From an uncultured Gemmatimonadaceae bacterium (GTDB taxonomy: Bacteria > Gemmatimonadota > Gemmatimonadetes > Gemmatimonadales > Gemmatimonadaceae), in assembly GCA_963740355.1 (NCBI GenBank), contig CAVUDW010000002.1, positions 1,760,001-1,824,000 on the forward strand: a DNA stretch of 64,000 bases, given 5' to 3'. A program made the translations under genes and the position numbers. The notes under the pieces were generated by a model. It was not told the origin of the DNA. It made no database searches and saw nothing but the letters and a program-made list of their open reading frames with translations. Below, piece after piece: positions 2,649 to 50,223 of this stretch. The number at the start of each line of letters is the position of its first letter. Position 1 is the stretch's first letter.

Positions 2649-4451
2649 ATGAGCACTCTCCACCTAGTGAAGAAGCTCTGGCCCTTCATCAAGAAGTACC
2701 AGGGAAGCCTGGTGCTGGCACTGGTGCTGACGATGATCGGCGCGGTGCTGGCACAGGTCACTCCGTTGGTGATGGAGTACTCCGTCAACACGGTGCAGGG
2801 CTTGCTCGACAAGCCAGTGGACCAGCCGCAGATCCTGCGCATCGTCGGCACGCTGGTGGCGGTGCTGCTGGGCAAGGAGGTCCTCAGCCTGCTGATCCAG
2901 CTCTGGCAGAAATACCTCAGCGATGGCATCCGCTTCCGGATGGCGGGTGATCTCTACAACTACACGATCCATCGCATCATCTCGTACCACCTGTCGTTCT
3001 TCGCGCTGCCGAACAACCAGACCGGCAAGCTGGAAAAGCGCATCGACAAGGGTATCGAGAGCATCACGAAGACGATCAAGAACATGTTCGTGGACATCCT
3101 GCCGATGCTCGCCAATGCCGGCCTGGCACTGATGCTGATCTACAAGAAGAATTTCTGGGTCGGCGTGGTCGCGTCACTGGTACTGCCGCTGTATGCGTGG
3201 ATCAGCCGCGCGCAGACGCTGCGGCAGAAGAGCATCCGTCGGAGCATCCAGCATGTGCGGGAGGAAAAGACGAACTCCCTGTTCGGGTTGCTGGAGTCGA
3301 TCTTCGTCGTCAAGTCGTTCGTTCGCGAGGGCTACGAAACGCATCGGCAGCAGGTGCTGAACGGCAGCCTGGTCACGAACGAGATCACGCACCATCGCAC
3401 GAACTATCTCTTCGATGGCCTGAAGGGCATCGCTGAGCAGGTCGGGATCATGATGGTCTTCACCCTCACGATCTACTTCGTGCTCAACCACGAAATGACC
3501 GTCGGTGCGATCCTGCTGCATATCATGCTGTTCAACAATGTGTCGGCGCCGGTGCGCCACCTGCACCGCATCTACGACGAATACACGGAGGCGCTGACGT
3601 ACTCCGAAGGCTTCTTCGAGATGATCGAGACCGACGGCTACCTGCCGCGCACCGGTGGCGTCACCAGTGACACGTTGCGTGGCGACTTCGTGTTCGAGAA
3701 CGTGGATTTCATCTATCCGAACGGCAAGCAGGCGCTCAAGCGGGTGAACTTCGAGCTGCAGCGCGGCCGGACGACCGCGCTGGTAGGACTCTCCGGGGCG
3801 GGCAAGAGTTCGGCGATGAACCTGCTGGCGGGGTTCTACGAGCCGACCGCCGGGCGCGTGCTTCTTGATGGCGCGGACCTCCGCTCATTCGATGCGGATT
3901 GGGTGCGCGAGAATGTCGGGCTGGTGATGCAGAAGAACCATATCTTCGCCGGTACGGTCGCGGAGAACATTCGCTACGGCCTGCTCCAGGCCACGCAGGA
4001 GCAGATCGAGGCAGCGGCGCGGAAGGCCAGCCTGCACGAGCAGATCCTGCAGATGCCGCATGGGTACGAGACCCAGGCGCGCGAGTTGTCCGGTGGTCAG
4101 CAGCAGCGGATCGCGATCGCGCGGCTCTTCCTCAAGAACCCGCCGATCATCTTCTTCGATGAGCCGACCGCCAGTCTCGACGCGATCACCACCGAGCAGA
4201 TCAAGGAGAGCATCGACGCGGTGAAGCACAATCGCACGGTGCTGATCATCTCGCACAACATCAGCCAGATCATGGACGCCGACTCGATCTACGTCATGAG
4301 CGAGGGGGAGATCGTCGCCAACGGGACGCACGAATCACTGTACCGGGACGGCGGCTTGTACCGTAGCATCATCGACTCCAACGCCCGTACCCTCAACATC
4401 GGCCGCCTCGCCGCCACCGTCCTGCCGCAGCCCGCCGTCGCGCTCGCGTAG
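2649..4451 (+). CDS. ABC exporter, fused permease plus ATPase (MsbA/MdlB-like)
   Basis: N-terminal TM domain, Walker A GLSGAGKS, signature LSGGQ, Walker B IIFFDE and H-loop ISH. Confidence 0.92.
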   Translation: MSTLHLVKKLWPFIKKYQGSLVLALVLTMIGAVLAQVTPLVMEYSVNTVQGLLDKPVDQPQILRIVGTLVAVLLGKEVLSLLIQLWQKYLSDGIRFRMAGDLYNYTIHRIISYHLSFFALPNNQTGKLEKRIDKGIESITKTIKNMFVDILPMLANAGLALMLIYKKNFWVGVVASLVLPLYAWISRAQTLRQKSIRRSIQHVREEKTNSLFGLLESIFVVKSFVREGYETHRQQVLNGSLVTNEITHHRTNYLFDGLKGIAEQVGIMMVFTLTIYFVLNHEMTVGAILLHIMLFNNVSAPVRHLHRIYDEYTEALTYSEGFFEMIETDGYLPRTGGVTSDTLRGDFVFENVDFIYPNGKQALKRVNFELQRGRTTALVGLSGAGKSSAMNLLAGFYEPTAGRVLLDGADLRSFDADWVRENVGLVMQKNHIFAGTVAENIRYGLLQATQEQIEAAARKASLHEQILQMPHGYETQARELSGGQQQRIAIARLFLKNPPIIFFDEPTASLDAITTEQIKESIDAVKHNRTVLIISHNISQIMDADSIYVMSEGEIVANGTHESLYRDGGLYRSIIDSNARTLNIGRLAATVLPQPAVALA

Positions 4452-46429: not shown

Positions 46430-46574
46430 TCCTCAGGGCGAATAGGCACAGTGGCGATTCTAGGCCTGGGCATCGCTTAGGGCAACACCTTAGTGATGCA
46501 TCGCAAGATGGCGCGCGGGTGATCGATTGTGACCTGCGGTGTCGCGCCGCGGCGCACCGAGCGAGCTTTCGCGC

Positions 46575-47345
46575 GTGACCACTGCCTCGTCGGGCTCGCT
46601 GACACACTTTGCGCTGGAAACCCTGGCGTACTTCGTCGCGGCTCGCTGGTACTGGCGCGCTGCTCGGGTGGGACCACAGCCGCCGCCGCGCGACCGCTTC
46701 CTTCTCCTCGCGTGCGCCGTGTTCGGGGCAGCACTCGGCAGCAAGCTGCTGCATGTGTTCGAGCACCTGCCGGCGCTGCTCGAGCGGCGCGACATGGCGC
46801 TCTGGCTCGGTGGAAAGTCAGTGCTTGGCGGTTTCCTTGGCGGCACCGTCGGCGTCGAGATCGGCAAGCGGAGCATCGGTTGGCGTCAGGCCACCGGCGA
46901 CACCTGGGTAGTGCCGATCACCCTCGGGCTGCTGATCGGTCGCCTCGGCTGTCAGCTCTCCGGACTCTGGGATCAGACCTACGGCAATCCGACCACGCTG
47001 CCGTGGGGCTGGAATTACGGCGATGGCATTCCGCGGCACCCGGTCGCCGCATACGAAATGTTCGGTGTGATGCTCCTGTATCTCGCAATACGACATCGTT
47101 TCGACCCGTTTCCGGGGGCGCGATTCGCCGCGCTGCTGCTCGGGTACTCGGCGTTGCGCCTCGCCCTCGAGTGCCTCAAGCCTCCGTTTGGTCCACTGGC
47201 GCCCGGCACATTGCCGGTGGCACTCTACGCGGGCCTGACCGCCATTCAGTGGGCCGCGCTCTTCGGTATCGTGTGGTATGGCGTGCTTTTGCGTCGTCGC
47301 CTGACGGTGGTCGAGTCGCCCGCCGCGACACGCGCCGCGTACTGA
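46575..47345 (+). CDS. Divergent prolipoprotein diacylglyceryl transferase (Lgt)-family membrane protein
   Basis: About 7 TM helices, with G.KL, GGKS.LGG..GG, IGRLGC..G, G.PT.LPWG, RHP..AYE, Y...R...E and LT.IQ motifs. GTG start at 46575 chosen; the ORF track gives 46539. Confidence 0.85.
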   Translation: MTTASSGSLTHFALETLAYFVAARWYWRAARVGPQPPPRDRFLLLACAVFGAALGSKLLHVFEHLPALLERRDMALWLGGKSVLGGFLGGTVGVEIGKRSIGWRQATGDTWVVPITLGLLIGRLGCQLSGLWDQTYGNPTTLPWGWNYGDGIPRHPVAAYEMFGVMLLYLAIRHRFDPFPGARFAALLLGYSALRLALECLKPPFGPLAPGTLPVALYAGLTAIQWAALFGIVWYGVLLRRRLTVVESPAATRAAY

Positions 47346-47365
47346 CTCCTGCTGCCCACCACTGA

Positions 47366-48800
47366 ATGCCGAAGACGCGTCCCTACCTCTACTACGATCA
47401 CGTCGTCAGCCTGTGCGACGAGTGCCTGCGTCGCATCGAGGGGAAGCTCGTCATTCGCGACAACATGGTGTGGATGTACAAGTGGTGTCCGTCGCATGGG
47501 CAGACGAAGGTGCTCGTCGCCTCGGATGCGGCCTTCTGGCGCATGGGGCGCGAGGTCTACATCAAGCCCCCCGAAATGCCGGAGCGGTTCAACACCGAGA
47601 TGGCATGGGGCTGCCCATATGATTGCGGACTCTGTCCGGATCACATGCAGCACTCCTGCCTCACGATTCTCGAGGTCACGGATCACTGCAATCTCTCGTG
47701 CCCGGTGTGTTACGCCGCGAGCGGGCCACATCGCACCGAGCGGCGTGACCTGGCCACGATCGAGAAGATGCTGGATGCCATCGTGGCGAATGAAGGTGAG
47801 CCGGATGTGGTGCAGATCTCCGGTGGTGAGCCGACGACACATCCCGACTTTTTCGCCATTCTCGATGCGGCGAAGCGTCGGCCGATCCGGCACCTGATGC
47901 TGAATACGAATGGGATTCGGATCGCGCAGGAGCCTGGGTTTGCGGAACGCCTGGCTGCGTACGCACCGGGCTTCGAGATCTACCTGCAATTCGATTCATT
48001 GCAGCGTGATGCACTTCATGACCCTGCGCGGTGCGGACCTGCGCAGGATCCGTGAAGAGGCGGTGGCGGCGCTCGATCGCGTCGGTCTGTCCACCACGCT
48101 CGTGATGACGGTCGCGCAGGGCGTGAACGACCAGGAGATCGGCGATGTGATCGAGTGGGCGACGAAACACTCGTGCATCCGCGGCGTGACGCTGCAGCCG
48201 ATCCAGTTCGCTGGACGAATCGATGGGGTGCCGCAACAGACGGCACGCCTCACGCTCACCGAGGTGCGGCAGCGGCTGCTCGACCAATGCCCGATCTTCC
48301 AGCCGGATGATGTGATTCCGGTGCCGTGCAATCCCGATGCGCTGGCGATGGGTTATGCGCTCCGGACACCCGCCGGCATCATGCCGCTGACGCGTTTCAT
48401 TCCTCCCGACGTCCTGCTGGCTGGTGAGCGCAACACCATCGTGTTCGAGCAGGATCCGAATCTCAAGGACCAGGTCTTCCGGCTCTTCGCGACCAATCAC
48501 TCGCCGGAGTCGCAGGCAAAACATCTCGCTTCGCTGCTCTGCTGCCTGCCGAGCATCGACGCGCCGCCGAGTGTGGGCTATGACAGCGTGTTCCGCGTGC
48601 TGATCATGGCGTTCATGGATGCCACGGCGTTCGATGTTCGCGCAATGAAGAAGAGCTGCGTGCACATCGTGCAACCCGATGGCCGGATCATCCCATTCGA
48701 GTCGTACAACCTGTTGTATCGAGACGACCGTCGCGCGATCCTCGACGAACGACGTGCCGAAGTGGATCAACTCTTCCAGCTGCAGCGGAGCCCCGTATGA
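47366..48800 (+). CDS. Radical SAM protein of the COG1964/Tes (GDGT-MAS)-like family, interrupted by a +1 frameshift at about 48014-48017
   Basis: SLCDEC...KWCPSHG, GCPYDCGLCPDH, CNLSCPVC and SGGEPT lie in frame 1. G.ND, FMD...FD...KKSC.H and DGRIIPF..YN lie in frame 2. Removing one base from GCA-CTTC-ATG gives a single 477-aa ORF. Confidence 0.88.
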
Positions 48801-48813
48801 ACGGTCTACCGGC

Positions 48814-49041
48814 ATGAAACGCGTCGTGGTTGGGATCTTGCTGCTGGTTGGCGGCCTGCTTGGCCTGTTCATGTCGGCATGCGGCGCCTTCATCAGCGTG
48901 GCGATGCTCGCGGACCGTGCGAGTCGGCAATACGCGGGTATGCTGATTCTGTCCGTGCCGTGTGCGCTGGTTGGCGTGCTGCTGCTCTGGTTTGTTTGGC
49001 GCCGCTTCAAGAAGTTTCGCGCACCAATCACGAATGGCTGA
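48814..49041 (+). CDS. 75-aa two-helix membrane peptide with lipobox-like MSAC
   Basis: MKR, a hydrophobic h-region and FMSA-C-G, then a second hydrophobic helix containing Cys and a basic tail RRFKKFR. Starts 13 nt after the radical SAM stop. Confidence 0.72.
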   Translation: MKRVVVGILLLVGGLLGLFMSACGAFISVAMLADRASRQYAGMLILSVPCALVGVLLLWFVWRRFKKFRAPITNG

Positions 49042-49178: not shown

Positions 49179-49241
49179 AAGGTCAGTGCAAGGAGTCGTT
49201 AAGGACGTGAGTCTACAGCGGATGCACCTGGAGTGTGTGTC

Positions 49242-50223
49242 GTGAATGCGATGCGCGACCGCGGCGGTCGGCAGTCGCCACTGGCGGGACTGCTGCACGC
49301 CCGAGGGCTGGTGGTGGTTGACGGTGCGCTCGCCACGGAGCTCGAGCGACGGGGAGCGGACCTGCACGACCCACTCTGGTCGGCGCGTGTGCTGCTCGAG
49401 CAGCCGGCGCTCATCCGAGCGGTGCACGATGCCTACTTCGCCGCCGGCGCCGACATCGCGATTTCGGCGACCTATCAGGCCTCGTTCGAGGGGTTCGCGC
49501 GTCGAGGAATGGATGCGAGACGCCGCCGCCGCCTTGATGCGCGAAGCAGTCGCGATCGCCCGGGCCTCCCGCGACGCCTGGTGGGCGGCGCAGTCCCAGA
49601 TCGATGCGCGTCTGCGCCCGCTGGTCGCGGCCAGCGTCGGACCCTACGGCGCCTTCCTCGCCGATGGATCGGAGTACCGAGGCCAGTATGCGCTCACCGA
49701 GGAGCAGCTCGTCGCGTGGCATCGCGCGCGATTCGCGGTACTTGCAAGCAGCGGCGCTGAACTGCTGGCTTGCGAGACCATCCCCTGCGGCGACGAAGCA
49801 CGGGCGCTGGTGCGTTTGCTCGATGAACATCCGGGAGTGAAGGCTTGGATCAGCTTCTCTGCGCGCGATGGCGACGCGGTGGCGAACGGCGAGAGCTTTG
49901 CGGCGCTGGCCGCAGAAATCGGCGCGCATCCCCAGGTCGTTGCGATTGGCATCAACTGCACCGCACCACAGCATGTTGCCTCGCTGGTGCGCTCAGCGCG
50001 TGCCGTGACGTCGACGCCGATTGTCGTCTATCCCAACTCTGGCGAGACGTATGTCGCCGGAGACAAGCGTTGGGAGCCCGGCGCAGTCTGCGCGCCGTTC
50101 GTCGAGTCCGCGAAGCTGTGGGCCGCCGCCGGGGCCACGATCATCGGGGGCTGCTGTCGCACGACGCCAGAGGATGTCGCGGCGTTGCGTGTCTGGGTGG
50201 ACGCTGGCGCGGGCGCGGGGTGA
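49242..50223 (+). CDS. mmuM: Homocysteine S-methyltransferase, interrupted by a frameshift at about 49510-49519
   Basis: Frame 1 has DGALATELE, LWSA and AGAD...ATYQAS. Frame 2 has ASVGPYGA.LADGSEY.G.Y, ETIP, GINC, YPNSGE and GGCCRT. The joined product is about 326 aa. Confidence 0.88.

Follow-up and report, generated by a model that had tools for sequence, protein, structure and literature searches.

A paralog of the diacylglyceryl transferase Lgt, a Tes/TrsS-superfamily enzyme of the radical S-adenosylmethionine (SAM) class, and a small membrane protein with a single conserved Cys are encoded side by side in the window analyzed here (a 64,000-nucleotide stretch of contig CAVUDW010000002.1 from an uncultured Gemmatimonadaceae bacterium), and these three components make up a real, conserved, and widespread bacterial module. 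The cassette is apparently an undescribed variant of lipoprotein-type lipidation that is coupled to a Tes-clade radical SAM enzyme. In the open-access PMC/bioRxiv literature we found no description of it, no mention of Lgt in work on tetraether and branched glycerol dialkyl glycerol tetraether (brGDGT) lipids, no paper that brings together Lgt, a radical SAM enzyme, and a lipobox, and, among the papers listed, none that names the Lgt enzyme along with Tes, with one such search returning only papers on archaeal lipoproteins. These searches agree with an earlier note on this DNA, made from the sequence alone, whose author knew of no characterized function for the trio. The same note had proposed the trio, with its small Cys-containing open reading frame (ORF), as a candidate modification cassette and had suggested a survey of gene neighborhoods for Lgt paralogs beside the radical SAM gene. 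That survey is now in hand, and the adjacency of the genes, the permutations of their order, natural fusions of the two enzymes, co-occurrence within the genus, and a control with TrsS loci all bear out the proposal of a unit; the reading given in the note is supported in part.

Two peptides conserved in the radical SAM enzyme were used to scan one genome per species, and about 534 of 185,579 species genomes matched. The best 80 of these 534 matches were taken as the sample for locus comparison. By record title, the 80 loci comprise 9 from Gemmatimonadota, 66 from Beta/Gammaproteobacteria or "Proteobacteria", and 5 that are labeled otherwise (Planctomycetota, Conexibacteraceae, Acidimicrobiaceae, Deltaproteobacteria, and Desulfovibrionaceae). 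In 72 of the 80 loci, the Lgt paralog adjoins the radical SAM gene and shares its strand (gap, -32 to +48 nt); in 5 more it lies upstream at a distance of 246-1251 nt. The remaining 3 loci have no such paralog, and in two of them the contig breaks off at the gene. When ORFs of at least 90 aa were clustered all against all, the radical SAM enzyme was recovered in 78 loci and the Lgt-like gene in 77; the next real families reached at most 23 loci each and represent lineage synteny, and no other family in this size range was widely common. Hidden Markov models (HMMs) built from the downstream small ORFs matched in 66 of the 80 loci, on the cassette strand every time and on the opposite strand never, and therefore the 75-aa small ORF of the window is no product of chance. 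As a strand control, an HMM of the 23 core residues around the Cys matched 57 loci on the + strand and none on the - strand, adding no loci to the set that had been found by regular expression.

The arrangement of the module varies in ways that keep its members together. The miniprotein gene lies upstream of lgt in at least four loci by HMM (L037, L043, L044, and L046) and in four more by eye (L040, L060, L063, and L079), and it sits between both enzyme genes in L078, also by eye; the trio therefore survives rearrangement. At several loci the miniprotein gene is present in two or three tandem copies. Among 11 long homologs scanned, two (P0125 of 733 aa and P0228 of 671 aa) are fusions that carry LGT, Zn-ribbon, and Radical_SAM domains in a single chain. 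A separate search for longer homologs took only proteins of at least 836 aa, a range that does not reach Lgt-radical SAM fusions of about 700 aa, and it returned no fusions other than one with AMP-binding and one with MobA-HD. Within the genus, 9 of 19 relatives have a close radical SAM enzyme, and each of these 9 has a close Lgt paralog as well, whereas the other 10 gave neither with that query; the 19 genomes are kin, so this co-occurrence reflects co-inheritance and is no independent statistic. Two further genus relatives (G003 and G014, loci L019 and L020) encode a 532-aa radical SAM enzyme with 35% identity to that of the window and, directly upstream of it, an LGT-domain gene (341-aa frame), and the Lgt link therefore reaches well past the close clade. 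Identity within the genus is 90-95% for the radical SAM enzyme, 67-76% for the Lgt paralog, and 42-50% for the miniprotein, and the radical SAM enzyme is still 63-78% identical between Gemmatimonadota and Proteobacteria. Cultured carriers among the loci are Dyella marensis, Dyella acidisoli, Frateuria sp. Soil773, and Oleiagrimonas soli.

The curated family on which intact orthologs of the radical SAM enzyme score best is TrsS (NF045646), a family of radical SAM (seleno)proteins whose naming is credited to Haft and Tolstoy 2025 in PMC13188914. These orthologs reach 317.5-329.4 bits over the full TrsS model against a cut-off of 490, and they reach 255-279 bits on the Tes model (NF045702) against a cut-off of 450, with model positions ~3-322 of 486 matched. 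Because its scores fall under both cut-offs, the enzyme is assigned by profile to neither of these curated families. Membership in TrsS was considered as a candidate in its own right and is ruled out by score, tree position, and neighborhood. True TrsS members from the representative search score 490.5-607 bits. In a quick maximum-likelihood tree of 55 rows (midpoint root, several long branches, careful search unfinished), all 21 Lgt-linked or fused rows fall in one 28-row clade (SH-aLRT, a likelihood-ratio branch test, 90), apart from TrsS. As the neighborhood control, five proteins that pass the TrsS cut-off were used to collect 80 TrsS loci from metagenomes (L121-L200), and none of the 80 has an Lgt-like ORF within 4 kb. 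Instead, the TrsS genes are accompanied by an AMP-binding ligase (70 of 80), a class I methyltransferase (57), a C_GCAxxG_C_C redox protein (53), a CCG-domain protein (46), a MobA-like nucleotidyltransferase (NTP transferase) with an HD domain (27), and XdhC (25); the ORF clustering recovered no member of these families near the cassette in its 80 related loci. Several of the TrsS-neighbor domains are fused to TrsS-clade enzymes (P0238, P0265, P0254, and P0121). TrsS above the cut-off was found in none of 301 genomes from the phylum of one locus's genome. TrsS and the cassette enzyme share the same N-terminal metal motifs; TrsS has Cys at positions 325, 430, and 445, whereas the cassette clade has A/S, S, and E/D there.

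Features of the cassette and its downstream neighbor in the window.
Feature	Coordinates	Strand	Description and basis
Lgt paralog	46539..47345	+	268 aa, GTG start; Pfam LGT and alignment of 20 paralogs
Radical SAM gene, Tes/TrsS (COG1964-type) superfamily	47366..48800	+	Overlapping frames 47366-48055 and 47910-48800
1-nt insertion (frameshift) in radical SAM gene	48013..48017	+	DNA alignments against intact orthologs
75-aa two-helix membrane miniprotein	48814..49041	+	Alignment of 25 homologs, HMM matches
Homocysteine S-methyltransferase gene, next downstream	49233-50223	+	1-nt insertion near 49517-49518 in all four genus-relative comparisons

The layout described in the earlier note, three co-oriented genes separated by 20 and 13 nt, is reproduced in the + strand ORF list, with gaps at 47346-47365 between the Lgt paralog and the radical SAM gene and at 48801-48813 between the latter and the miniprotein gene. 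An alternative in-frame GTG for the Lgt paralog lies at 46575, 12 codons downstream of the start in the table, and both starts are possible. The miniprotein ORF begins at an inner ATG of the listed ORF 48679-49041 and starts MKRVVVGILLLVGGLLGLFMSAC. The assembly does contain the frameshift that the note implied for the radical SAM gene: the window copy has one extra base relative to four same-genus orthologs, all of which are intact at 477 aa, and NCBIfam model positions 3-202 fall in the first frame and 203-436 in the second. Given this insertion, the window copy of the cassette would be either inactive or mis-assembled. Programmed frameshifting and selenocysteine were considered as causes of the split and rejected, as the relatives read through with one base fewer and no in-frame TGA occurs at the junction. 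The homocysteine S-methyltransferase gene is also split: one frame encodes the N-terminal part from ~49311 on, and the frame of 49246-50223 encodes the C-terminal part. Two 1-nt insertions thus lie within 1.5 kb of a five-contig assembly, which makes an indel error in the assembly a live possibility. Among public sequencing runs, the best match contained 0.20 of the sampled words, no contig was informative across 48013-48017, and no RNA run was listed as a match.

The earlier note had described the second enzyme as a Tes-like radical SAM protein with extra N-terminal metal motifs. The motifs stand, and so does a kinship to Tes at the level of the superfamily; the scores below the Tes cut-off and a different set of C-terminal ligands speak against placing it in the Tes family itself. 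In Pfam, the first frame matches Zn_ribbon_HMPTM and Radical_SAM, and the enzyme contains a rubredoxin-like CxxC...CxxH motif, a CPYDCGLCPxH cluster motif, and a CX3CX2C motif at 47687-47710. The corresponding residues (C17/C20/C41/H44, C83/C87/C90/H93, and C108/C112/C115) are kept in 18-20 of 20 Lgt-linked homologs. Tes is described as having four metal sites, namely a rubredoxin-like Fe (3Cys+His), an N-domain cluster (3Cys+His), the SAM cluster, and a C-domain cluster (3Cys+Met) (PMC13459092), and the cassette enzyme resembles Tes/GDGT-MAS (Methanocaldococcus jannaschii MJ0619, 7TOL/7TOM) in the first three of these motifs and in a kinship that runs the full length of the protein. A profile of the enzyme matches 7TOL in the Protein Data Bank (PDB) with an E value of 9.8e-72 over residues 12-456, and the two halves of the window copy score 155.7 and 93.9 bits on the Tes model. 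A C-terminal block, ...MxFMDAxxFDV...C.H...IPF..N, is conserved in both enzymes. The clade also has C-domain residues of its own (C321, C392, C393, C431, and H433, each in 19-20 of 20 Lgt-linked homologs), for which metal ligation is putative. Unlike Tes, the cassette enzyme belongs to bacterial hosts with ester lipids and has an Lgt paralog as its partner in 77 of 80 loci; archaeal homologs of Lgt have not been found, according to the abstract of PMC12462473. Tes is reported to bind an ester-linked phosphatidic acid (PMC13274423). Another radical SAM enzyme proposed to couple bacterial lipid tails is Mss of Thermotoga, which is no more than a remote relative of Tes according to PMC13159169; the description of Mss considered here mentions no Lgt link.

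The assignment of the first gene to the Lgt family holds, with 73.1 bits on Pfam LGT (PF01790; 72.7 bits in the genome search) against a cut-off of 24.9. On the NCBIfam equivalog for housekeeping Lgt (TIGR00544), the protein scores 22.7 bits against a cut-off of 118.9; a canonical lgt at 226 bits (Pfam) is present on another contig of the same genome. Canonical lgt and the paralog are likewise both present in Dyella marensis and in a Neisseria sp. About 30 positions are invariant over 20 paralogs, including a clade-specific motif, GRxGC...D.TYG...W...GDG..RHP. When these 20 sequences were used as a profile against PDB, Escherichia coli Lgt (5AZB) was the sole match (E 4.5e-15), with an alignment in two blocks that skips Lgt ~152-192, the periplasmic head (the 5AZB chain index equals the published Lgt numbering +1). 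In this alignment, R135 (46941-46943) pairs with E. coli Lgt R143 and R207 (47157-47159) with R239, both invariant in the 20 paralogs; these are the phosphate-binding and gating arginines of Lgt by the residue roles given in PMC13251419. The equivalent of Y235 is Y203, also invariant in the 20, and the E243 position is occupied by E or D. Y26 and G154 of Lgt fall outside the HMMER alignment to 5AZB, and the paralogs have an invariant H23 and E27 near their N-terminus. The likeness to E. coli Lgt (5AZB/5AZC, PF01790) thus extends to the transmembrane core, the R143/Y235/R239/E243 equivalents, and a Cys-bearing, signal-like partner sequence; unlike E. coli Lgt, the paralog is a second copy that comes with a substrate-like gene of its own and with a radical SAM partner, to which it is at times fused. 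A complex prediction for the paralog with the miniprotein (alignments A3 and A4) gave a score of 0.00 and weighs neither way.

The miniprotein has no Pfam or NCBIfam family above the cut-offs, and its nearest clusters in the Protein Atlas (scores 0.91-0.92) are unnamed and labeled "hypothetical protein". It begins with K2 and R3, continues with a 19-residue hydrophobic run, and reaches M-S-A-C with a noncanonical Met at position -3, so that the first helix closes with Cys23-Gly24 (LFMSAC|GA; Cys codon, 48880-48882). Among 25 short-form homologs, which share 24% identity on average, C23, G24, and G54 are the columns that stay invariant. Around the Cys, 57 homologs found by pattern read L-[VM]-[AST]-[AL]-C-[GF]-G, and they fall into two architectures. 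The short form (~61-100 aa; Gemmatimonadota, Burkholderiales, and Steroidobacteraceae) has its Cys at residue 22-34, ending helix one of two. The long form (~105-133 aa; Dyella, Rhodanobacter, Frateuria, and relatives) has an N-terminus rich in proline, then two helices, a loop rich in K/R, and a third helix whose end reads ...LLLVAAC-FG; the Cys is at residue 95-123, only 7-13 residues before the C-terminus, and the trailing residues are conserved (C-F-G-[LMI]...aromatic-His). The Cys precedes residue 60 in 29 of the 57 and is in the long-form position in 27 of the other 28; the last, L049, is a mis-started short form. In both architectures the Cys is preceded by K/R residues and a hydrophobic helix, and by the positive-inside rule it would lie at the periplasmic end of an in-to-out helix in both forms, which is a lipobox-like position. 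Two homologs of signal peptidase II (LspA) are encoded in the same genome (G000:C2:2153952-2154374 and C2:306640-307056, at 127 and 110 bits), and Lnt was not found there above the NCBIfam cut-off, with a best score of 35 bits against 132.9.

From these features we put forward, at slightly less than an even chance, a mechanism in which the Cys of the miniprotein receives a dedicated S-lipidation and the radical SAM enzyme tailors the lipid tails. The Lgt paralog, as a seven-helix membrane enzyme, would use the single conserved Cys as acceptor for a glycerolipid moiety, which is probably diacylglyceryl taken from phosphatidylglycerol. The C-terminus of Lgt is cytoplasmic, and the domain order in the natural fusions is LGT and then radical SAM. 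The cytoplasmic radical SAM enzyme may therefore dock on the C-terminus of the Lgt paralog, the place at which the two are fused in some organisms. Its radical chemistry would be directed at the hydrocarbon tails of this same lipid, with tail-to-tail C-C coupling as the most plausible reaction, and this step might come before or after transfer onto the Cys. A more specific version, which we regard as unlikely, is a protein-anchored membrane-spanning lipid in which a phosphatidylglycerol-derived diacylglycerol, thioether-linked to the Cys in the outer leaflet, would have its tail ends joined by the radical SAM enzyme either to an inner-leaflet phospholipid or to each other. If true, it would be the first case of a lipoprotein anchor being tailored by radical C-C chemistry, and many bacterial "Tes homologs" counted as brGDGT markers would do something else.

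A number of observations weigh against Cys lipidation with radical tailoring. One is topological: the Lgt active site would face the periplasmic leaflet and the radical SAM enzyme is necessarily cytoplasmic, so the two would not reach the same atoms at once. On the side of the transferase, the residues reported as essential in E. coli Lgt are Y26, H103, R143, N146, G154, and R239 (mBio 2026, PMC13251419). The paralogs have an invariant C138 (46950-46952, in GRxGC) at the N146 position of the GRLGNFINGE signature and Leu, Val, or Ile in place of H103 of HGGL, with the GG kept, and two of the six are therefore absent; the periplasmic head domain has also shrunk from ~40 to ~20 residues. The combination Y26H and N146C, which would match the invariant H23 and C138 of the paralog family, occurs in Mycobacterium smegmatis MSMEG_5408 and in Leptospira interrogans Lgt (PMC13251419). 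The M. smegmatis paralog is credited with a "presumed low Lgt activity", while N146C is described from distant Lgts that include the only Lgt discussed for Leptospira, which is treated as the organism's own Lgt, in contrast to the spare copy here (all PMC13251419). A preprint speculates that MSMEG_5408 prefers a different lipid substrate (PMC11741404), and nothing on the gene neighbors of MSMEG_5408 was found in open-access text or supplements. On the side of the acceptor, a strict lipobox ([LVI][ASTVI][GAS]C) is present in only 24 of the 57 miniprotein motifs (a relaxed lipobox in 50), and 13 of the 57 have an atypical Leu at -1. The miniprotein relative at locus L095 lacks the Cys, L087 and L099 bear Sel1-repeat genes and a lipoprotein-like signal in place of the miniprotein, and 14 of the 80 loci have no miniprotein HMM match, although downstream DNA is missing from three of these and inspection by eye gave a candidate in five. 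With regard to the radical chemistry, the C-domain cluster of Tes parks the first substrate radical (PMC13459092, a 2026 review). Among the aligned C-terminal cysteine positions of 7TOL, one alone is kept in the cassette clade, and therefore the radical-capture step may differ from that of Tes.

Three other explanations were weighed against the same evidence. The cassette might make a free membrane-spanning lipid, with the radical SAM enzyme coupling phospholipid acyl tails to give diabolic or iso-diabolic acid and brGDGT precursors, the Lgt paralog feeding or holding phosphatidylglycerol, and the miniprotein acting as an unlipidated scaffold or regulator. Homology of the radical SAM enzyme to Tes speaks for this, as does the retention of the phosphatidylglycerol-binding arginines in the Lgt paralog, and an Lgt fusion would tether the radical SAM enzyme to the membrane. 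Zeng et al. 2022 listed 456 bacterial Tes homologs and proposed for them a role in brGDGT synthesis (PMC8941075). According to PMC13159169, Sahonero-Canavesi et al. 2022 found no Tes homologs in the screened diabolic- and iso-diabolic-acid producers outside Acidobacteria, and only 3 of 14 iso-diabolic-acid-producing acidobacteria have one. Free-lipid synthesis would also leave the lipobox-like Cys-Gly, the invariant motif of the third gene, without an explanation, and the accessory character of the cassette, which is carried by 9-11 of 19 genus relatives, would be odd for a bulk membrane lipid; on balance we hold this explanation to be improbable. Alternatively, the radical SAM enzyme might act on the miniprotein itself in the manner of ribosomally synthesized and post-translationally modified peptides (RiPPs), for instance to make a C-S or C-C bond at Cys-Gly or beside it, with the Lgt paralog as a recognition or scaffold subunit or as a later lipidating enzyme, and cleavage would then free a short lipopeptide, which in the form with a C-terminal Cys would be the last 8-14 residues. 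The 7-13 residues that follow the Cys in the long form are themselves conserved, the small gene occurs in tandem copies at several loci as RiPP precursors do, and either of the two LspA homologs in the genome could cut at the lipobox. This possibility is nonetheless quite remote in our judgment, since the radical SAM superfamily in question acts on lipids, no peptide-maturase family scores above its cut-off, and no peptide-binding domain is recognized by Pfam. Moreover, the Cys would lie at the periplasmic membrane face, beyond the reach of a cytoplasmic Fe-S enzyme unless it were modified before insertion, and the short form has at least 38 residues, including a second helix, after the Cys.

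The replaced N146 and H103 and the shortened head domain of the paralog raise the further possibility that it is a catalytically dead membrane anchor of the radical SAM enzyme, in which case the miniprotein would be a structural subunit and its Cys structural or redox-active. The fusions, which show both proteins forming one unit, are equally at home here. This is the explanation to which we attach very little probability. The ~30 positions that stay invariant over 20 paralogs, among them the R143, R239, and Y235 equivalents, are typical of an active site and not of an anchor, and N146C has been reported in Lgts that are the main copy of their organism (PMC13251419).

Dedicated lipidation with radical tailoring would, if it holds, have consequences for several lines of work. 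Bacterial Tes homologs have been proposed as the missing synthases of brGDGTs and membrane-spanning lipids (PMC8941075), and they do not track the lipid producers by the account in PMC13159169. The module offers a testable alternative for these homologs, namely lipid chemistry on a protein-bound lipid, and it would be a warning not to assign brGDGT sources in metagenomes from Tes homology alone. It would also add a new branch to bacterial lipoprotein biogenesis and would supply a function for divergent Lgt copies of the N146C type. The cultured carriers (Dyella, Frateuria, and Oleiagrimonas) put the cassette within experimental reach.

Several individual loci show features of their own. Two loci of the sample, L040 and L041, have identical ORF tables and come from metagenome-assembled genomes (MAGs) labeled Gammaproteobacteria and Acidimicrobiaceae, respectively; one of the two labels is probably a binning or duplication artifact, and "Acidimicrobiaceae" is therefore not countable as a separate phylum. 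The Lgt paralog is split with an in-frame TGA in G002:C122:1904-2637 (also L026), and it is fragmented in L095, the locus whose miniprotein relative has no Cys; these damaged copies could mean that an accessory cassette is decaying, or they could be errors in the MAGs. Two extra genes stand between the Lgt paralog and the radical SAM gene in L087, L099, and L060 (~2770-3995), and they encode a Sel1-repeat protein followed by a ~180-aa protein that has a lipoprotein-like signal (…LALSLCAC…) and no Pfam family. In the deltaproteobacterial locus L080, a sulfotransferase gene (2898-3986) lies between both enzyme genes.

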